Source: Escherichia coli
GTDB lineage: Bacteria; Pseudomonadota; Gammaproteobacteria; Enterobacterales; Enterobacteriaceae
DNA: 64,000 nucleotides
NCBI RefSeq assembly: GCF_044324875.1
Contig: NZ_CP172185.1
Reading direction: 5' to 3' (one strand)
How positions within the stretch are numbered: position 1 is the stretch's first letter; every line of letters begins with the position of its first letter. The notes under the pieces are model-generated. The model was not told the origin of the DNA, ran no database searches, and saw only the letters and a program-made list of their open reading frames with translations. The translations under genes and the position numbers were made by a program. Below, piece after piece: positions 45,901 through 54,350 of this stretch.

Positions 45901-46011
45901 TAGTTAAATGATTAGTCCCCGGAAAAAAGCAAAATTTTCTTTAAGCGTATTAGCTCAGATGCGGACTGACATCTCAAATCAAGCGGGAACTCATGGTTCC
46001 CGCTTAACGTT

Positions 46012-46899
46012 TTATTCACCGCGCAGGATCTGGCGGAAATGGGAAACCAGCGGACGTTGGTTGGCTTTATGCCAGGCTGCCCATAATTGCGTTGAATAAT
46101 TCATCCACGGCAATTCACGTAATACCACCCCTTCCGGCGCATTATGACGCAGACTATTTTGAATTAAGGCCAGACCTAATCCCGCAGCGACCAAACCTAA
46201 TGCCGTGAGGGGTTCACCCGCTTCCAGGCGAATATCAGGATTAAACCCGGCGTTAACACAGGCGGCGACAAAATGATCGCGAGAATGCGCATCGTCGTTA
46301 TGAATCACCGCAATCCACTGCTCATCGCCAAGTTGTGACGCGACAAGGTTTTCCTCCTGCGCCAGAGGATGATTTTGCGGTAAGGCCAACAACATTCGAT
46401 CATCCAGAACCTGAATATATTCCAGATCCTGCTCGCTGTCGGTGGGCGGCGTATCGACCAGAGAAAAATCGAGACTGCGCTGACGCAGGCCTTCAATCTG
46501 GGTAGCCGGTGGTTGGCTGTAAAGAGCGATATGCACATTCGGACGCGATACACGTAACGTACGTAGCGCCGTAGAAAGCACACCGGAATGCATGGCGTTT
46601 TCGATATAGCCAATACACAAGCCACCATCTTCCCCCCGTCCCAGGCGTTTGCCTAACGACTCCAGGCGGTTGGCGTGTGTCAGCAACGAACGTGTTTCGG
46701 CAAGGAATGTCTGTCCATCAGCGGTCAGGCGAATGCGCTGCTGATTACGCTCAAACAGCGTCAGTCCCAGCCGTTCTTCCAGTTGTGCAATCTGGCGGCT
46801 CAGCGGCGATTGCGAGATATGTAATCGCTCGGCTGCGCGTCCCACGTGCTCTTCTTCTGCGACCACCACGAAGTACTTCAGTTGGCGTAAATCAATCAT
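46012..46899 (-). CDS. LysR-family transcriptional regulator
   Basis: MIDLRQLKYFVVVAEEEHVGRAAERLHISQSPLSRQIAQLEERLGLTLFERNQQRIRLT N-terminal HTH, followed by an effector-binding domain; divergent from the aldo-keto reductase gene. Confidence 0.85.
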   Translation of the reverse strand: MIDLRQLKYFVVVAEEEHVGRAAERLHISQSPLSRQIAQLEERLGLTLFERNQQRIRLTADGQTFLAETRSLLTHANRLESLGKRLGRGEDGGLCIGYIENAMHSGVLSTALRTLRVSRPNVHIALYSQPPATQIEGLRQRSLDFSLVDTPPTDSEQDLEYIQVLDDRMLLALPQNHPLAQEENLVASQLGDEQWIAVIHNDDAHSRDHFVAACVNAGFNPDIRLEAGEPLTALGLVAAGLGLALIQNSLRHNAPEGVVLRELPWMNYSTQLWAAWHKANQRPLVSHFRQILRGE

Positions 46900-47031
46900 G
46901 TTAGACCTCAAAGGACTTAAGTCAGACGAATTATGTCCTATCAAGTCACAACCTCGCAAGGTATTGTGATCCACGTCACAGGGCAATAGCAAAAAACGCC
47001 CGAACCCAAACCGAATAATTGAGGACATCTT

Positions 47032-48042
47032 ATGAGCATCAAAAATTTACTTCCCGGCAAAATTGGCTTAGGCGGCGCACCACTCGGCAACATGTTCCGT
47101 GCCATTCCGGAAGAAGAGGCCCACGCCACCGTGAGCGAAGCCTGGAACCTGGGTGTGCGTTACTTTGATACCGCGCCGCTGTACGGCTCTGGCCTTTCTG
47201 AAATCCGCATGGGTGAAGCGCTGTCTCAGTATCCACGCGATGAATACGTTCTGAGTAGCAAAGTCGGTCGCATCGTGCTGGACGAAATGGAAGATCCGGC
47301 AAAACGGGATTTCGGTGAAAAAGGTGGCCTGTTCGAACACGGCCTGAAAAACAAAATTCTGAATGACTACTCTGCTGACGCCACGCTGCGCTCGATTGAA
47401 GACAGCCTGAAACGCCTGAAAACAGATCGTCTGGATATTGTCTGGATCCACGACCCGGCGCAGGACTTCTACGGTGACAGCTGGCTGGAGCAGTTCAACA
47501 TAGCCCGTACCGGTGCGTTTCGTGCGCTGACGCGTTTGCGTGACGAAGGTGTGATTAAAGCCTGGGGACTGGGTGTCAACCGCGTCGAACCTTGCGAACT
47601 GACGCTGGCGCTGGACGAACCGAAGCCGGATGCGTTCCTGCTGGCGGGGCGTTATTCCCTGCTGGATCACGAACGTGCGCTGCAACGCCTGATGCCAGAA
47701 GCACTGGAACAGAACGTGGATATTGTTGTGGGCGGTCCGTACAGCTCTGGCGTACTGGCAGGCGGCGAGCACTTTGAATATCAGAAAGCTTCTGCGGCCA
47801 TCCAGCAGAAAGTGGCGCAAATTAACGCCATTGCCACACGTTTCAATGTGAACGTTAAAGCGGCTGCGCTGCAGTTCGCGCTGGCAAACCCGGCCGTTGC
47901 AGCGGTTATTCCTGGCTCCAGCCGTCCTGGCCGTATGGCAGAAGATCTGGCTGCACTGAATGCGCCTGTTCCGGCTGAATTCTGGGCAGAAATGCGCCGT
48001 CAAAATCTGGTTGCGGAAAACGCTCCGCTGCCGACCCGTTAA
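47032..48042 (+). CDS. Aldo-keto reductase family oxidoreductase (336 aa)
   Basis: N-terminal GLGGAPLGNMF...EAWNLGVRYFDTAPLYGSGLSE pattern typical of the AKR fold. Confidence 0.85.
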   Translation: MSIKNLLPGKIGLGGAPLGNMFRAIPEEEAHATVSEAWNLGVRYFDTAPLYGSGLSEIRMGEALSQYPRDEYVLSSKVGRIVLDEMEDPAKRDFGEKGGLFEHGLKNKILNDYSADATLRSIEDSLKRLKTDRLDIVWIHDPAQDFYGDSWLEQFNIARTGAFRALTRLRDEGVIKAWGLGVNRVEPCELTLALDEPKPDAFLLAGRYSLLDHERALQRLMPEALEQNVDIVVGGPYSSGVLAGGEHFEYQKASAAIQQKVAQINAIATRFNVNVKAAALQFALANPAVAAVIPGSSRPGRMAEDLAALNAPVPAEFWAEMRRQNLVAENAPLPTR

Positions 48043-48061
48043 TCAACCTGGTGAGAAAACG

Positions 48062-48858
48062 ATGAAACTGGATCTGACAGGTAAAGTCGCGGTGGTCAGC
48101 GGCTCAACCTCCGGCATTGGGCAGGGTATCGCCGCCGGACTGGCAAAAGCAGGCGCAACGGTGGTTGTCGTCGGCCGTAAACAGCGCGGCGTTGATGATG
48201 CCATGGCTGCGATTGCGGCACAAACTCCCACGGCGTCACTGCGCGGCGTGGTGGCCGATCTCAGCACCGAAGACGGCGTGGCTGCGCTGATCGCTGCAGT
48301 CCCAACGGCTGATGTGCTGGTCAATAATCTGGGCATTTTTAACGATAAAGATTTCTTTAGCGTTCCGGATGATGAGTGGATGCACTTCTATAACGTCAAC
48401 GTCCTCTCCGGCGTTCGTCTGGCGCGTCACTATGCGCCAGGCATGACGGAACAGGGCTGGGGCGGATTATCTTTGTCTCGTCTGAATCCGGCGTGGCAAT
48501 TCCTGGCGACATGATCAACTACGGCGTCACCAAAGCCGCGAATCTGGCGGTTTCTCATGGTCTGGCGAAACGACTGGCAGGGACCGGTGTGACCGTCAAC
48601 GCCATTCTGCCAGGGCCAACCTTTACCGATGGCCTGAAAGAGATGCTGGCGGATGCCGCTGCACAATCGGGACGCAGTGCGCGTGAACAGGCCGATGAGT
48701 TTGTTAAAACCTCGCGTCCGAGCTCCATCATCCAGCGTGCGGCGGATGTGGAAGAAGTGGCGAATCTGGCGGTTTATCTCGCGTCACCGCTTTCCTCGGC
48801 AACCACAGGGGCAGCCCTGCGCGTCGATGGCGGCGTCGTCGACACCCTGACAATGTAA
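48062..48858 (+). pseudogene. Short-chain dehydrogenase/reductase (SDR) interrupted by a frameshift near 48461-48466
   Basis: N-terminal half (MKLDLTGKVAVVSGSTSGIGQGIAAG..., Rossmann TGxxxGIG motif) is in one frame and ends prematurely; the catalytic half (...RIIFVSSESGVAIPGDMINYGVTKAA... with YxxxK) continues in another frame; the nucleotide context ggctggggcgga looks like a single-base indel. Confidence 0.7.
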
Positions 48859-48883
48859 CCCTATAAATTAAGAGAAAATTATC

Positions 48884-49300
48884 ATGGCTAAAACAACTGT
48901 ATCGATCGAAATTCCGGCTTCTGCCGACGCCGTATGGCAATTGATGGGCGGCTTTGATGCGCTGCCAGACTGGCTGCCGTTCATCCCGAAAAGCGTAGTG
49001 ACAGAAGGCGGTCGCGTTCGTTCGCTGACAACCTCTGACGGCGGCACTGTGGTTGAACGTCTGGAAGCGTTTGATAACCGTCAACGCAGTTATACCTATT
49101 CCATTATTCAGGCACCGTTCCCGGTGGTGGATTACCTCTCCACCATTACCGTTCATGAAACCGCCGACAGCCAGGTTTCCCGTGTGGAATGGTTCGGTGA
49201 ATTCACCCCGGTGAATGTGACGAACGAAGAGGCCGAAGCGCTGTTTACCGGCATCTATCGGGATGGTCTCAAGGCGCTGAAGGACAACTTTGTTGCCTGA
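48884..49300 (+). CDS. SRPBCC (Bet v1 / polyketide-cyclase-like) ligand-binding protein, 138 aa
   Basis: Size and the AVWQLMGGFDALPDWLP pattern resemble SRPBCC-fold proteins; assigned on composition and pattern only. Confidence 0.6.
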   Translation: MAKTTVSIEIPASADAVWQLMGGFDALPDWLPFIPKSVVTEGGRVRSLTTSDGGTVVERLEAFDNRQRSYTYSIIQAPFPVVDYLSTITVHETADSQVSRVEWFGEFTPVNVTNEEAEALFTGIYRDGLKALKDNFVA

Positions 49301-49457
49301 TGCGATCGACAGGCGTCGGAACGTCCGGCGTCTGATTATTAACAAAAACAGAATAGTCTATTGCCATTTGTATCATTTATGTTATCAGGCAGTAGGCGTA
49401 TTCTCTCCCCATCGCGTTAATAAACGCCAAACAATTAAGACACTCTGGAATATAAAC

Positions 49458-49670
49458 ATGAAAACGATCATCGCAATTTTTACGGCTTCTCTTTTCTCTG
49501 TCGCGGCGTTTAACGCATCGGCGCAAAGCGTGACAGCAACCGGTACAACACTGGATTCCGCTGAAGCGGTTATTGCGCAGAAAGCGAAAGAGATGAACGC
49601 CTCTGAATACAAAATTACCAGCGCTCGCATGGGCAATACCGTCACCATGAGTGCCGAACTGTACAAATAA
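49458..49670 (+). CDS. Small periplasmic DUF1471 (YdgH/BhsA/McbA-like) protein, 70 aa
   Basis: Signal peptide MKTIIAIFTASLFSVAAFNASA, then a ~50-aa domain ending in ...SAELYK, typical of this stress-associated family. Confidence 0.7.
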   Translation: MKTIIAIFTASLFSVAAFNASAQSVTATGTTLDSAEAVIAQKAKEMNASEYKITSARMGNTVTMSAELYK

Positions 49671-49718
49671 CCGCACGAGAGACCCATTACGTAATTTGCT
49701 AAATATGCGCTGAATGCG

Positions 49719-49990
49719 TTGCCATTAATAAACCGTATTGTAATGCCACCGATGACGCGTTCCCGTGCGGGTGACGTTGCGACTGACATAATGGCGGCCT
49801 ATTACGCGCAGCGCGCCAGTGCTGGACTTTTCATTAGCGAAGGTACGCAAATCAGCAGAAGCGCTGCGCATAATTTTCCACGGCACGCTGATTTACTCCG
49901 GTAAAGACACCAAAGCGCGCGCCGAACAGGCGCTGGCTAACGGCTAGTCGGATCTGATTGGATTTGGTCGTCCGTATAGTGCCAAAAGCG
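49719..49990 (+). pseudogene. Remnant of an old-yellow-enzyme (NemA-like NADH:flavin oxidoreductase) gene
   Basis: MPLINRIVMPPMTRSRA...DIMAAYYAQRASAGLFISEGTQIS matches the OYE N-terminal FMN-binding region but stops after about 60 codons; a downstream out-of-frame stretch (...DLIGFGRPY...) resembles the OYE C-terminus, consistent with an internal deletion. Confidence 0.55.
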
Positions 49991-50097
49991 GAAGTTGGTA
50001 GTTTCAGCCTATGTTGATAAACGGGGAGCCGGTCAGCACGTAAAGAGATTTTTTTGTACTGCTATGGCCCGATCAAAAATCGATTGAGCCGAATGTG

Positions 50098-50469
50098 CTA
50101 GCTATCTCCGAAGATAATTTTTTCGAGCTCCTGCAAGTCCTGCTGTGATTGCTCGTTAAGGTTAGCCTCTAACTTGTCGTACCATGTAAGCAGTTTCTTG
50201 CCAAGTGGTGTCAAAACCGAGCCTCCACCTTTACTGCCGCCTGTTGATGTAATTACCACCGGCTTACCTATGCCTTTATTGAGTGTATCAATCAGGAGCC
50301 ACGCCCTTTTATAGGGGATTCCCAGATCTTTTGCGGCAGCTGAAAGGGAATGAAACCCATCTATAGCTCGTAAAAGATCGATTTTCCCCGGTCCCAGCGA
50401 GATATTGTCATTAATGTAGATTCGGGGTCTGACCAAAATAAAATCAAACATAAGCGTTTTTTTATTCAT
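50098..50469 (-). CDS. ModE N-terminal-domain-like winged-helix regulator (about 120 aa)
   Basis: ...LSAAAKDLGIPYKRAWLLIDTLNKGIGKPVVITSTGGSKGGGSVLTPLGKKLL resembles the ModE N-terminal DNA-binding domain; start codon is ambiguous (Met at 50487, 50469 or 50451). Confidence 0.6.
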   Translation of the reverse strand: MNKKTLMFDFILVRPRIYINDNISLGPGKIDLLRAIDGFHSLSAAAKDLGIPYKRAWLLIDTLNKGIGKPVVITSTGGSKGGGSVLTPLGKKLLTWYDKLEANLNEQSQQDLQELEKIIFGDS

Positions 50470-50494
50470 TCTGAGAACTCCGTGCAAAGTATTT

Positions 50495-50914
50495 TTATCG
50501 GGTGTGTTTGAAAGTTTTGATGGCAGAAATAAGAAGGATCACACCAAGTAAAGTCATAAGGGCTTTAAGTGGGAACAAGCCGACCATAAGTCCACCAATT
50601 GCTGCACCAATTACTGAACCAATAACCATCCATACAAACAGTGTCCTTTCTTGCTTCAGAATCAGGAAAGCATCTGCATTTATATAACGGGAAAAGCCAA
50701 CAATCATTGTTGGCAGGCTAATCATCAGTGAAAGACTTCCGGCCAGTTTAATATCTTCCCCGAAAAGGATAACGATTGTGGGGATAAGAAGCTCTCCGCC
50801 AGCCACTCCGAGCAATGCTGCGACTATCCCGATAAAGCCCCCTGATACCACCCCCACAATAATCATGGCAAGGCCAGGTTGAAATAACCCGCCTGAAATA
50901 CTGTGCAACGGCAT
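50495..50914 (-). CDS. DUF81 (TauE/SafE sulfite-exporter family) permease, C-terminal half (139 aa)
   Basis: Four predicted transmembrane helices with the GVAGGELLIPTIV motif; starts at the codon immediately after the TAG that ends the upstream half, in the same frame. Confidence 0.65.
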   Translation of the reverse strand: MPLHSISGGLFQPGLAMIIVGVVSGGFIGIVAALLGVAGGELLIPTIVILFGEDIKLAGSLSLMISLPTMIVGFSRYINADAFLILKQERTLFVWMVIGSVIGAAIGGLMVGLFPLKALMTLLGVILLISAIKTFKHTR

Positions 50915-51301
50915 CTAGGCTTCAGAGAGCATGACAAAAGACAGTAAAACAAGCAGGATCAGAATGATTCTGTCCAGCCAGATTCTGGACATCTTTATGG
51001 CACGACCTGCGGCCCACCATGCTCCAATAAGACTTCCTGCCAGCAAATTTATGACAATATCAAGATGCGCCACCAACTGATCAAAAGATATAGATTTTGT
51101 TCGGAAAATTAAAGCAATAGCCACCACGGCGAGACTCATTGCTTTGTTAAAAATGACGGCTTCCAGAGAAGGGATTTTGAAACTACCGATCAGTACGGGA
51201 AGGCGAAATTCAGCCCCTCCGAGGCCAATCAACCCACCTAAAGCCCCTATTACCGCGCCTGAGAAAAAACCTTTACCATTCCTGTTTGAAACTGACGACA
51301 T
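50915..51301 (-). CDS. DUF81 (TauE/SafE family) permease, N-terminal half (128 aa)
   Basis: Four predicted transmembrane helices with the GLGGAEFRLPVLI motif; ends at a TAG that is immediately followed in frame by the ATG of the second half. Confidence 0.65.
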   Translation of the reverse strand: MSSVSNRNGKGFFSGAVIGALGGLIGLGGAEFRLPVLIGSFKIPSLEAVIFNKAMSLAVVAIALIFRTKSISFDQLVAHLDIVINLLAGSLIGAWWAAGRAIKMSRIWLDRIILILLVLLSFVMLSEA

Positions 51302-51714
51302 GCGTTCCTCTCTAATTCGTTATGTCTTTTTTGACATAACGACAAGCATAGCATTGCAGAACAGGCGTCTGGTAGTTGCTTGTAAAGACGAGGATTGATC
51401 CAGGTTAAAATTTATTCTATTAACCTGCTCTCCGTTGTTTAACACACCACGATTTATGTGATGCTTTCATGAGAAATTAAAACAACTAAGAACTTCCGCT
51501 TCTCGCTCGAAGCGGACTGTCAGATTTGATTGCATTCTGGCTACGCAACTGGTCGGTTGGAGTATGAAGTTGCTCACGAATAGCCTTAGCATCCGCAATT
51601 TCGTAGCGGGTCACCCGTGCAGGTTCTTTCTAATCTCAACAGCCTCTTCCAGAGAGTTTTTCAACTCATCAAAAAACTCAATTTATACCTCGCCTTTGAG
51701 CCGTTTCATCACGG

Positions 51715-52947
51715 TTATCTCTGCTCCCCCATCATCTCCCGCACAAGTTCCACGCAGCGCAGGAAACGGCTGTCATAATCGTCCTCTTCAACACGCACGA
51801 ATTCGATATTGTTCTCTTCCAGCATCTCCACCAGCAAGTTCTGGAACTCTTTGCGATCCACCGAACTACCGAGGCTGCGTAAACCATCCGCCACCCACGG
51901 GGTGTTGTTCTCCAGCAAGATAACCAGATCAAAACGGTATTCATCAATCAGCGCCTGCACGAACGGATGCTCACGCCCTTCGTACTTTTTGCAGAACGCC
52001 TGGGTAGTGACAAAATCAGTGTCGATAAACGCCACTTTATTGGCGTATTTCACTGCAAAATCAATATATTGCGCGTGTCCCAGCGCGATTTTATCGTAGT
52101 CAGAATACTGCAATGCGATCTCATCACCGCCGAGGTGTGAAAAGACATAATCGCGACCATATTCCCACGCACTGGTGGTATTGAAGATATTGGCAAGTTT
52201 GTTTACCAGGGTGGATTTACCGCTCGACTCGCCGCCAAGGATCGCCACGGTACGCACAAAAAACGGCTTCACTTCAGTGGGGATATATTCCCAGTAGCGG
52301 AACGGGTTTTCGCGGATCTGCGCACCGCTGATACTCATAAAGGTGCGTTTCGGATCGACCAGCACCGTTTCGATCCCCAGATGTTCCATATACTGTGGCG
52401 CATCGGCTTCTTCCGAGGTGTAGATCAGGTCCGGCTGGATCCCCTTTTCAGCCATAAACTTTTTGATGCCATTGCTCCACACATCCCAGCCGTGCGGATA
52501 TGGCTCCATGCCCTCTTCGTTGAAAGCATGAATACGGATATTTTTCTGATATTTAAAGGTTTGCAATAACCAGCGCAGACGATCCGGCACGGTGGGCTGC
52601 TGCGACATGGCGCTGTCTTCAAACAACGCACGGTCACGGGTATCGTCAAAGCCCATAATGATATGCAGCTCGTCAACCTGGCTACAGGCGCGCTGGATAA
52701 GGTAGATATGTCCGGTATGTAGCGGGTAGAACTTACCGAATACGACACCAATGGTTTTCTTCTGCCGGGGAAATTCAAGCCCCAAAAAACGGTGCAACGC
52801 CTCCAGCTTTTGCGCGCTGGGGCTTTTAATTTTGGCATTCAGTAACTGGCTTAAATACCCTTTGGTCATACCGCTGGCATCAGCTACCTGCTGTAGCGTG
52901 CAGCCCTGTTGCTTGATGGCAGTTTTCAGGTAATCAAATGACGACAT
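51715..52947 (-). CDS. nadR: Trifunctional NAD biosynthesis/regulator protein NadR
   Basis: MSSFDYLKTAIKQQGCTLQQVADASGMTKGYLSQLLNAK HTH, followed by NMN adenylyltransferase and ribosylnicotinamide kinase (P-loop GGESSGKST) domains. Confidence 0.95.
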   Translation of the reverse strand: MSSFDYLKTAIKQQGCTLQQVADASGMTKGYLSQLLNAKIKSPSAQKLEALHRFLGLEFPRQKKTIGVVFGKFYPLHTGHIYLIQRACSQVDELHIIMGFDDTRDRALFEDSAMSQQPTVPDRLRWLLQTFKYQKNIRIHAFNEEGMEPYPHGWDVWSNGIKKFMAEKGIQPDLIYTSEEADAPQYMEHLGIETVLVDPKRTFMSISGAQIRENPFRYWEYIPTEVKPFFVRTVAILGGESSGKSTLVNKLANIFNTTSAWEYGRDYVFSHLGGDEIALQYSDYDKIALGHAQYIDFAVKYANKVAFIDTDFVTTQAFCKKYEGREHPFVQALIDEYRFDLVILLENNTPWVADGLRSLGSSVDRKEFQNLLVEMLEENNIEFVRVEEDDYDSRFLRCVELVREMMGEQR

Positions 52948-52967
52948 ATCTCCCTCCGTATCTCTCA

Positions 52968-54350
52968 TTATAAGTCGTCGAACACGCTAAGCGCGTCGGA
53001 GAGTTTTTTAACGCCAAAAATCTGCATCCCTTCCGGCGCTTTTTTCGGCACGTTAGCCGCCGGAACAATCGCCCGCCGAAAACCGTGTTTCGCCGCTTCA
53101 GAGATTCGTTCCTGGCCGCTGGGCACCGGGCGGATCTCCCCTGCCAGCCCGACTTCACCAAACACCACCAGATCCTGCGGTAGCGGTCTATCACGCAGGC
53201 TGGAAACCATCGCCAGCAGTAACGCTAAGTCGGCACTGGTTTCCGTCACCTTCACGCCGCCGACCACGTTAACAAATACATCCTGATCGGCCATTTGCAA
53301 CCCACCGTGACGGTGCAGCACCGCCAGCAGGATTGCCAGACGGTTTTGCTCCAGCCCTACTGCGACGCGGCGTGGATTCGCCATCATCGAGTGATCGACC
53401 AATGCCTGGATCTCCACCAGCAGTGGACGCGTTCCTTCCCATACCACCATCACTGAGCTACCGGAGGTCACTTCATCACCGCGGCTTAAAAAGATGGCGG
53501 AAGGGTTGCTAACTTCACGCAGCCCCTGTTCGGTCATCGCGAAGACGCCCAGCTCATTCACCGCGCCGAAGCGGTTTTTATGGCTGCGTAAGGTGCGAAA
53601 ACGGGAGTCGGCATCGCCATCCAGAAGCACCGAACAGTCGATACAGTGTTCCAGCACTTTAGGGCCAGCCAGCGAGCCATCTTTGGTTACGTGCCCAACC
53701 ATGACAATCGCCACACCGCGCGTTTTGGCGAAGCGCGTCAGATAAGCCGCCGTTTCACGCACCTGCGCCACGCTGCCAGGCGATGACTGAACATCCGCCA
53801 TATGCATCACCTGGATCGAGTCAATTACCATCAGCTTCGGTTGCTCTTCTTCGGCAATCAGGCAGATTTGTTCGATGCTGGTTTCAGACAGCATATTGAG
53901 ATTGTCAGTCGGCAGGCCAAGGCGATGAGCGCGCATTGCCACCTGTTGCAGCGACTCTTCGCCGGTGACATACAGCGTTTTCATCTGCTGGGCCAGTTTG
54001 CACAGCGTTTGCAACAGCAGCGTGGATTTCCCCGCGCCTGGGTTACCGCCAATCAGAATGGCGCTTCCCGGCACCACCCCGCCGCCTAATACGCGGTCGA
54101 ACTCTTTAAATCCGGTGGAAAAACGCGGCAGCTCTTCAAGGCTGATGTCGGAAAGTTTCTGGACTTTTGCCACCCCGGCGCTACCGGCATAGCCACTGAG
54201 ACGCTCGTTACGCGCCACCGTTGGCGACGCTGCAAGACGCACCTCGGTGATGGTGTTCCAGGCATGACAGGCGCTGCACTGCCCCTGCCAGCGCGGATAA
54301 TCGGCCCCGCATTCATTACAAACAAAGGCGCGTTTTGGAGCTTTTGCCAC
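52968..54350 (-). CDS. radA: DNA repair protein RadA (Sms)
   Basis: GTG start (VAKAPKRAFVCNECGADYPRWQGQCSACHAWNTITE zinc finger), RecA-like P-loop GGNPGAGKSTLLLQ and a Lon-like C-terminus. Confidence 0.95.
   Translation of the reverse strand: MAKAPKRAFVCNECGADYPRWQGQCSACHAWNTITEVRLAASPTVARNERLSGYAGSAGVAKVQKLSDISLEELPRFSTGFKEFDRVLGGGVVPGSAILIGGNPGAGKSTLLLQTLCKLAQQMKTLYVTGEESLQQVAMRAHRLGLPTDNLNMLSETSIEQICLIAEEEQPKLMVIDSIQVMHMADVQSSPGSVAQVRETAAYLTRFAKTRGVAIVMVGHVTKDGSLAGPKVLEHCIDCSVLLDGDADSRFRTLRSHKNRFGAVNELGVFAMTEQGLREVSNPSAIFLSRGDEVTSGSSVMVVWEGTRPLLVEIQALVDHSMMANPRRVAVGLEQNRLAILLAVLHRHGGLQMADQDVFVNVVGGVKVTETSADLALLLAMVSSLRDRPLPQDLVVFGEVGLAGEIRPVPSGQERISEAAKHGFRRAIVPAANVPKKAPEGMQIFGVKKLSDALSVFDDL

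Follow-up and report, generated by a model that had tools for sequence, protein, structure and literature searches.

A decayed toxin-antitoxin operon and a nested mobile unit with a predicted ModE box between nadR and ettA of Escherichia coli

The nadS remnant and the island borders

The window, which is the whole stretch of 64,000 nucleotides that was analysed, is part of an Escherichia coli chromosome, and we describe here the 413-bp stretch at 51302-51714 that follows nadR. The order of genes on the minus strand is serB, radA, nadR (51715-52968), the studied region, a TauE/SafE-family (DUF81) permease gene and a gene for a winged helix-turn-helix (wHTH) regulator, followed by an alkene-reductase pseudogene, genes for DUF1471, SRPBCC, SDR, aldo/keto reductase and LysR proteins, and ettA. 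We conclude, with a probability of roughly 85%, that the region is a composite of a wrecked toxin-antitoxin operon, of which parts of the antitoxin gene nadS survive, and an unrelated nested mobile unit whose palindrome is a predicted ModE box. The nearest complete genomes are 96-98% identical over 51250-51760, and this stretch is covered in its entirety in just 20 of the 5426 complete E. coli genomes that served as the sample for population counts. The features of the operon remnant and of the island that interrupts it are as follows (an asterisk in a translation is a stop codon).

51683..51711, minus strand: relic of the 3' end of a toxin gene (relE/higB-like, ..MKRLKGEV*), from alignment with the L046 locus
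51568..51681, minus strand: 5' remnant of nadS, a HigA2-like antitoxin gene, codons 1-43, with the helix-turn-helix (HTH) lost (NF041265, PGAP annotations, alignments, BLAST to L046)
51679-51611, minus strand: first fragment, reading frame ...EFFDELKNSLEEAVEIRKNLHG*
51614-51486, minus strand: second fragment, reading frame (M)TRYEIADAKAIREQLHTPTDQLRSQ...
51518..51567: 50 bp of island DNA that separate the nadS breakpoint from the end of the cassette and are shared by both island variants
45945..51567: accessory island of 5.6 kb with LysR, aldo/keto reductase, SDR, SRPBCC and DUF1471 genes, the alkene-reductase pseudogene and the TauE-wHTH cassette (genome comparison, BLAST)
45901..45944, minus strand: 3' relic of nadS, its last 44 nt, at the ettA-proximal border (BLAST of the window against L046, through L046:2742, and translation)

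The two minus-strand fragments read as the first-pass annotation gave them (coordinates agree within 1-2 nt), and its suggestion that they are pieces of a disrupted small regulatory or antitoxin-like gene holds. They are two frames of a single gene, which a 10-bp deletion between 51631 and 51630 has put out of register. A reconstruction, for which we used the sequence of strain VCSW7 that is without the two small deletions, scores 77.4 bits against the NCBIfam profile NF041265 (cut-off 60), over profile positions 1-46 of 94 only. In the nearest genomes the corresponding stretch is, according to PGAP/RefSeq, a frameshifted and/or incomplete pseudogene of a 'NadS family protein'. Full-length NadS is a HigA2-like putative antitoxin.

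The intact order nadR / relE-like toxin (110 aa, PF06296) / nadS (94 aa) / ettA, for which the L046 locus was our reference allele, occurs in 674/5426 genomes. Full-length NadS genes (94 aa) also directly follow RelE/ParE-family toxin genes on many small enterobacterial plasmids, as they do in E. coli chromosomes. The C-terminal half of full-length NadS carries an XRE HTH (PF01381 HTH_3, residues 35-79) that aligns to Vibrio cholerae HigA-2 (PDB 5jaa, E=2e-7). The intact E. coli allele resembles V. cholerae HigB2-HigA2 in having a RelE-family toxin gene (PF06296) directly before the antitoxin gene, and in antitoxin size (NadS 94 aa, HigA2 104 aa; PMC5416850). In HigA2 the N-terminal ~36 residues are disordered and are sufficient for toxin neutralisation (PMC5416850). 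Unlike the C-terminal HTH, the NadS N-terminus has no sequence-detectable similarity to HigA2; its neutralising role is an analogy only, and toxicity and neutralisation by the E. coli RelE-like/NadS pair are putative. Searches with PADLOC defence-system models gave no match for TauE, the wHTH protein or the RelE-like toxin, and generic HTH matches only for NadS.

Lacking in the window, unlike in the V. cholerae system, are both a full-length antitoxin gene and its toxin partner. Homology to the ~94-aa NadS stops at codon 43, so that the C-terminal XRE HTH (residues 35-79) is missing, and about the last 14 codons are found elsewhere. The adjacent RelE/ParE toxin gene is deleted except for a tail of ~29 nt (51683-51711), which forms the spacer between the nadR stop codon (51715-51717) and the nadS start. 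The toxin-deletion junction is identical in K-12, VCSW7 and the window. The nadS copy of the window is a gene fragment and not a NadS family member in the functional sense.

Alignment with an island-less locus places the junction. BLAST to L046 sets the nadR-side breakpoint at 51568, the last position with homology to intact nadS. The 3' end of the gene lies at 45901-45944, where it translates as LKENFAFFRGLII* as against IKENPDFFRELASH* in the intact gene. Thus, the island sits inside nadS, and the fragments mark its junction as the first-pass annotation had proposed; the palindromes that it had grouped with them as junction marks do not. The island (45945-51567) replaces 116 nt of mid-nadS, and its genes are found in 482/5426 genomes. 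The 50 bp at 51518..51567 have no homology to intact nadS or K-12. Terminal repeats or target duplications of the whole 5.6-kb island were sought and none were found.

We propose that the ancestral E. coli nadR-ettA spacer held a toxin-first module of a 110-aa RelE-like toxin gene and, behind it, nadS for the 94-aa antitoxin. On the model of HigA2, the antitoxin would consist of an N-terminal segment that neutralises the toxin and an XRE helix-turn-helix at the C-terminus. The toxin gene was deleted in this lineage except for its last ~29 nt, and the 5.6-kb island, probably afterwards, displaced the middle of nadS, so that codons 1-43 stay by nadR and the last ~14 codons by ettA. The spacer has at least four allelic states in E. 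coli: the intact toxin-antitoxin module, a form truncated by repetitive extragenic palindromic (REP) sequences, the island with the cassette, and the island without it. In K-12 (L004:2195-2355, from the nadS remnant to ettA) a cluster of REP-like palindromic units stands in place of the 3' part of nadS.

The nested mobile unit and its hairpins

Nested at the nadR-proximal end of the island is a mobile unit, which is listed here with features of its outer end.

49979..51522, minus strand: mobile unit of 1.54 kb, consisting of a left flank, the TauE-wHTH cargo and a head element of ~95 nt (comparison with an IncN plasmid)
51495..51516, minus strand: G+C-rich hairpin TCCGCTTC-GAGCGA-GAAGCGGA at the outer end of the head element, terminator-like but without an adjacent U-run
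51401..51427: second palindrome CAGGTTAA-N11-TTAACCTG, which spans the join of head element and cargo and overlaps a weak sigma-70-like site

The unit is 91.8% identical, with exactly the same limits, to DNA of the Klebsiella pneumoniae IncN plasmid L051, outside of which the two sequences are unrelated. Just 20/5426 E. coli genomes have it. Its imperfect terminal inverted repeats lie at 49970-50003 and 51484-51517, and their core AAGCGGAAGTTnnTAGTT occurs at these two sites only in the window. In Serratia and Huaxiibacter, DNA of 86% identity to the cargo proper (50039-51420) is found between different flanks. The unit has no associated recombinase or transposase and no target-site duplication. 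Integron attC, Xer/dif-like, Tn3, Tn7 and IS3 ends were compared with the cassette flanks by eye only, and none fits convincingly. Rfam 15 covariance models run over 49600-51900 gave two chance-level matches only (E=0.78, E=3.8).

The unit resembles mobile insertion cassettes, or elements like miniature inverted-repeat transposable elements, in its imperfect terminal inverted repeats, in the absence of an internal transposase and in having the same limits in a chromosomal island and a plasmid. Unlike mobile insertion cassettes, it has neither a target-site duplication nor an identified cognate insertion sequence (IS), and its head element also occurs alone with other cargo. We take the likeness as a lead only.

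The first-pass annotation had proposed two inverted repeats as candidate operators, and both repeats are real. The second is a perfect 8+8 nt repeat at 51401-51427 (it had been placed at 51400), and the first is longer than the 9 bp reported at 51319-51342, with perfect arms of 10+10 nt at 51317-51342. In 2000 dinucleotide shuffles of 51302-51714 (perfect inverted repeats, loop of 3-20 nt), arms of >=10 nt arose in 0.9%, >=9 nt in 2.5% and >=8 nt in 9.8%. Thus, the first palindrome is unlikely to be due to chance, and a single 8-nt repeat is unremarkable. As a candidate operator, only the first palindrome stands, being of predicted ModE type and conserved. The second fails as a conserved operator, since its arms match at 6/8 positions in the 92%-identical IncN copy and its first arm is absent in the Serratia copy; it is probably due to chance. 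The sigma-70-like site that overlaps it scores no better than shuffles.

The region holds two more inverted repeats with perfect 8-nt arms (51495-51516 and 51654-51679). The latter lies inside coding sequence and is imperfect in the intact allele, and is therefore treated as chance. The former is the G+C-rich hairpin, which is the outermost conserved feature of the head element (fold -14.8 kcal/mol, z=-1.7), with a stem that is mostly retained in related elements. As a terminator of nadR it is a weak candidate, given the z of -1.7 and the lack of an adjacent U-run; at most, it may help to terminate read-through from nadR.

Could the palindromes, chiefly the second together with the G+C-rich hairpin, be recombination or terminal sites of mobile DNA, and hence true junction marks? 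The hairpin is part of the imperfect terminal inverted repeat at the outer end of the unit, and it is inside this hairpin that the island variant without the cassette breaks. The second palindrome lies across the boundary where the ~95-nt head element meets the cargo. We consider this unlikely. The second palindrome is not conserved, repeats of its length are found in about a tenth of shuffles, the first palindrome is already accounted for as a predicted ModE box, and the unit has no associated target-site duplication, recombinase or transposase. JNEC-KY178 and other strains with the cassette-less island are without 49927-51507, with a 4-bp microhomology at the join, and part of the alkene-reductase relic has gone too; these strains seem to have had the cassette and lost it by ordinary deletion, not by site-specific excision.

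Copies of the unit and its parts are found in other settings. The plasmid L051 is pCTX-M15_Kpn2166, which is conjugative; it holds the unit with both flanks and the ModE box at 2548-4088, between a replication gene and the ncr nickel-resistance genes, and a solo GTCCGCT..GAGCGAGAAGCGGAC hairpin motif ~30 nt past the end of the unit. Copies of the ~95-nt non-coding head element were identified in the window (51421-51522) and at L017:2491-2595, L051:2545-2655, L052:2993-3105 and L053:3475-3590. Its cargo varies (TauE-wHTH, a hypothetical gene near torT, a type II CBASS operon of a Klebsiella plasmid, and DNA near a Rahnella OsmC gene), and a diverged form adjoins a TIR-domain gene. The head element has no Rfam match, and RNAalifold on five copies found no covariation support. 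The 58-nt left flank (49979-50036) has copies of 82-88% identity in >130 E. coli genomes, and the single locus examined (L018:3001-3057) adjoins a TIR-domain gene in a CP4-like island. The inner end of this flank reads TGACCKGCTCYCCGTT toward the cargo and resembles an IS-type terminus. The cassette abuts the end of the alkene-reductase (OYE/NemA-like) pseudogene (49719-49977), in which an internal deletion fuses ~45 N-terminal codons to a C-terminal piece that includes a stop codon (..EALRIIFHGTLIYSGKDTKARAEQALANG*SDLIGFGRPY).

The predicted ModE box and its cassette

The first palindrome lies just upstream of the permease gene, in the following arrangement.

51345..51350, minus strand: predicted -10 hexamer TATGCT, with TGc before it (conserved position)
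51317..51342: predicted ModE-box operator, TCGTTATGTC-N6-GACATAACGA (motif fit, conservation, linkage)
50495..51301, minus strand: TauE/SafE-family (DUF81) permease gene, a pseudogene (PF01925 on both halves)
50098..50469, minus strand: winged-helix regulator of 123 aa, with the ModE N-terminal DNA-binding domain only (TIGR00637, PDB, identity)

The 24-nt pattern of the first palindrome occurs once in the 64-kb window at <=3 mismatches (0.02 expected). Its GTTATGT-N8-ACATAAC is a perfect fit to RTTATGT-N8-RCATAAY, the requirement for ModE binding that was shown by electrophoretic mobility shift assay in Methanosarcina, an archaeon (PMC12327845). The palindrome also fits the proteobacterial ModE consensus ATCGNTATATA-N6-TATATANCGAT (PMC545781); compared with CGNTATATA-N6-TATATANCG from the same source, it agrees at 12/18 core positions, or 14/18 if two N positions are counted. 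Upstream of K-12 modA we identified CGTTATATT-GTCGCC-TACATAACG, with 15/18 half-site positions identical to those of the palindrome and equal spacing. A full-text literature search for the K-12 modA operator sequence found none.

The box is present at all nine of the loci with wHTH homologues that we examined. These include a Pectobacterium chromosome, an ars-island plasmid, an Edwardsiella prophage, Proteus (where the box sits between divergent genes), a Shewanella Tn3-type transposon, Undibacterium and a metagenome contig, and the DNA that surrounds box and homologue is unrelated from one setting to the next. Across the nine instances the upstream half-site is near invariant and the downstream half-site more variable, with an A/T-rich spacer of fixed length (6 nt). 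Departures from symmetry are uncompensated, which is the pattern of a protein site and not of an RNA helix. In a scan for the exact pattern (18 specified bases; one genome per species, 100,044 species, 298 Gb) we found 26 loci in many phyla, against ~4-9 that we estimate by chance. ModE-N-like and/or ModA/ModB-like genes are near 13 of these loci. Enzymes with molybdenum or tungsten (Mo/W) cofactors adjoin two more (FmdE with a molybdopterin-binding domain; aldehyde:ferredoxin oxidoreductase), and TonB-dependent receptors adjoin two.

In Undibacterium (L015:3001-6363) and the metagenome contig (L016) the operon opens with genes for a ModE-N regulator, a ModA-like binding protein, TauE and a ModB-like permease, followed in Undibacterium by a ModC-like ATPase with a TOBE domain, and both have the same ModE box ahead of the binding-protein gene. 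The TauE homologue of Betaproteobacteria is thus part of an operon that resembles modABC. In an ars-island variant of the cassette (L008:2075-2125, L036:1010-1060) the ModE box lies inside a longer palindrome with arms of ~22 nt (ATGTTACTTTTCCCGTTATGTCA...), into which the TauE start codon also falls, and in that variant control at the RNA level may come on top.

The hexamer TATGCT is conserved at its position in Pectobacterium, Serratia, Citrobacter, Undibacterium, the metagenome contig and the IncN copy. Just 2 nt separate the hexamer from the box downstream of it, so that the predicted transcription start falls inside the upstream half-site; the box is 15 nt upstream of the TauE start codon, with the Shine-Dalgarno sequence GAGG (51307-51310) and the ATG (51301) after it. 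A dimer bound to the box would occlude the transcription start and so repress the TauE-wHTH operon. The binder could be the regulator of the cassette (autoregulation of a two-gene operon), the host ModE with molybdate as its ligand, or both. The ModE site at modA overlaps the transcription start, and the predicted position of the box over the start of the cassette operon is thus like that of the operator at modABC.

The regulator is clearly homologous to winged helix-turn-helix proteins of the ModE/LysR type, among them E. coli ModE (262 aa) and proteins that consist of ModE-N only (PDB 2ijl, E=2e-18), in spite of a TIGR00637 score below the curated cut-off. It matches E. coli ModE (1b9m) with E=2e-11 over residues 16-98 and is 45% identical to K-12 ModE over residues 19-92. 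No Mop/TOBE match was found, and homology is limited to ModE residues ~12-98. Unlike E. coli ModE it has no di-Mop domain, so that molybdate sensing, should there be any, cannot follow the ModE mechanism. Single-domain ModE homologues have been noted in delta-proteobacteria (PMC545781).

Both halves of TauE score above the PF01925 gathering threshold, and the intact alleles of ST2747 and VCSW7 encode a protein of 268 aa with 8 transmembrane segments (8-TM). The change W129* (TGG to TAG at 50915-50917) is specific to this genome and is not found in ST2747 and VCSW7. An in-frame ATG (50914-50912) right after the stop splits the 8-TM permease into two 4-TM halves. The two-gene module is probably inactive in this genome because the permease gene carries this nonsense codon. 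A literature search for a link between TauE and ModE turned up nothing beyond the ability of one TauE homologue to take up sulfate (PMC11535334). For the substrate of this TauE, a tetrahedral oxyanion (molybdate or tungstate, for example) is the likeliest candidate, as suggested by the link of the subfamily with ModA/ModB/ModC-like genes and by the sulfate import of the homologue (PMC11535334).

That the first palindrome acts instead as an RNA hairpin in the 5' untranslated region of TauE (a translational or stability element, or an attenuator) is very unlikely. It folds at -13.4 kcal/mol with z=-5.9, which counts for an RNA element and against the operator; its position 15 nt ahead of the start codon would also suit one, as would the extended arms of the ars-island variant. 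However, the sequence itself, beyond its pairing, is conserved from Enterobacterales to Betaproteobacteria and further, and matches validated ModE DNA sites (PMC12327845). The site also occurs in both orientations relative to neighbouring genes, including in divergent intergenic regions (L014), and a transcript from the conserved TATGCT would begin inside the first arm. Changes in one arm are uncompensated, a double change is found at the outermost pair only, and shuffles equal the scores in 70-80 of 500 trials. We reject the RNA reading on this lack of compensatory change.

We thus read the first palindrome as a predicted ModE-type operator that travels with the TauE-wHTH cassette and does not mark a junction. 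Several further points weigh against the reading of the region as a composite with a ModE box. No convincing -35 element was found, and a generic promoter scan missed the TATGCT promoter, returning a weak site further upstream only. About the chance number of the exact-match loci (9/26) are without a recognisable Mo/W context. The regulator scores 81 bits against TIGR00637 (E=5e-23), short of the curated cut-off of 98.5, and is without the Mop domains that make ModE responsive to molybdate. ModE binding at the palindrome is a prediction from sequence, and shared junctions are the only guide to when toxin loss, island entry and K-12-type truncation took place relative to one another at nadS.

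In its dyad symmetry and identical spacing the box is like known ModE operators (E. coli modABC and the M. acetivorans motif). It is unlike them in that the adjacent regulator has a DNA-binding domain only and that the gene under its predicted control encodes a cassette-borne TauE-family permease, in place of modABC or an operon for a molybdoenzyme. It is a predicted new instance of a well-known operator type on an uncharacterised, widespread cassette, with no departure from known mechanisms. The settings of the TauE/ModE-like module are arsenic and nickel resistance regions, prophages, Tn3-type transposons and IncN plasmids. It is conceivable, though we hold it doubtful, that TauE and its Mop-less ModE-like regulator form an unrecognised mobile module for transport of, or tolerance to, Mo/W-type oxyanions, and that the ~95-nt head element marks cassettes of a new, transposase-less type by which accessory genes move from one member of the Enterobacterales to another.

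Decay of nadS and significance of the locus

Four changes separate the nadS of the window from the intact gene: TTG for ATG, a run of six T for seven, the 10-bp deletion, and the loss of homology past codon 43 (51568). The loss of one T at 51671-51676 also throws the TTG start (51681-51679) out of frame. The T6 run is absent from all 3019 matching complete E. coli genomes, of which the best are 99.1% identical and differ by one gap, and may be a strain-specific change or a homopolymer sequencing error; all other genomes compared have T7. Since the entry of the island, the 5' piece has gained the 10-bp deletion, the 1-nt loss in the T run and the change of ATG to TTG, and the gene is dead.

The nadS of K-12, from which the NadS family name comes, shares with the window the locus, the toxin-deletion junction and the N-terminal sequence. 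It is a PGAP-annotated open reading frame of 55 aa that keeps its ATG and an open frame, and is reported as expressed, having been detected by PIRT-Seq (PMC12350097). It is cut at codon 39 by REP sequences, with no island, and its homology to the window ends at 51579; the window copy, unlike it, is cut at codon 43 by the island, starts with TTG and carries two frameshifting deletions. We give next to no credence to the idea that the remnant is a functional small gene for an orphan peptide that neutralises plasmid-borne RelE/HigB2-like toxins: the K-12 frame is annotated and detected (PMC12350097), the retained residues 1-39/43 match the HigA2 segment sufficient for toxin inhibition (PMC5416850) and the N-terminus is 81-84% identical to plasmid NadS, but in the window the frame is broken twice (T6 gives a stop 6 codons after the start, and the 10-bp deletion falls at codons 18-21), the equivalent gene is a PGAP pseudogene in the nearest genomes, and the function of even the K-12 product is putative.

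A small helix-turn-helix gene between lplA and deoD (L001:11941-12204, L002:11955-12218) is intact in some strains and has an internal stop codon in VCSW7.

The 413-bp 'intergenic' stretch is thus resolved into the tail of a toxin gene, a split antitoxin pseudogene, the end of a mobile cassette and a predicted ModE-box promoter. The region is ordinary and mostly annotated biology. The nadS remnant had already been annotated; new are the history of decay at the locus and the position of the island inside the gene, whose split pseudogene gives the site of insertion at single-nucleotide precision. Since neither the antitoxin remnant nor the permease gene is intact here, physiological importance in this genome is unlikely. 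With at least four states derived from one toxin-antitoxin operon, the nadR-ettA spacer is a useful marker locus. The TauE family has so far been linked to sulfite, sulfoacetate and sulfate; from the recurrent association of a TauE-family permease with ModE-type control and with ModA/ModB/ModC-like genes we predict that it also takes part in the handling of molybdate or tungstate.

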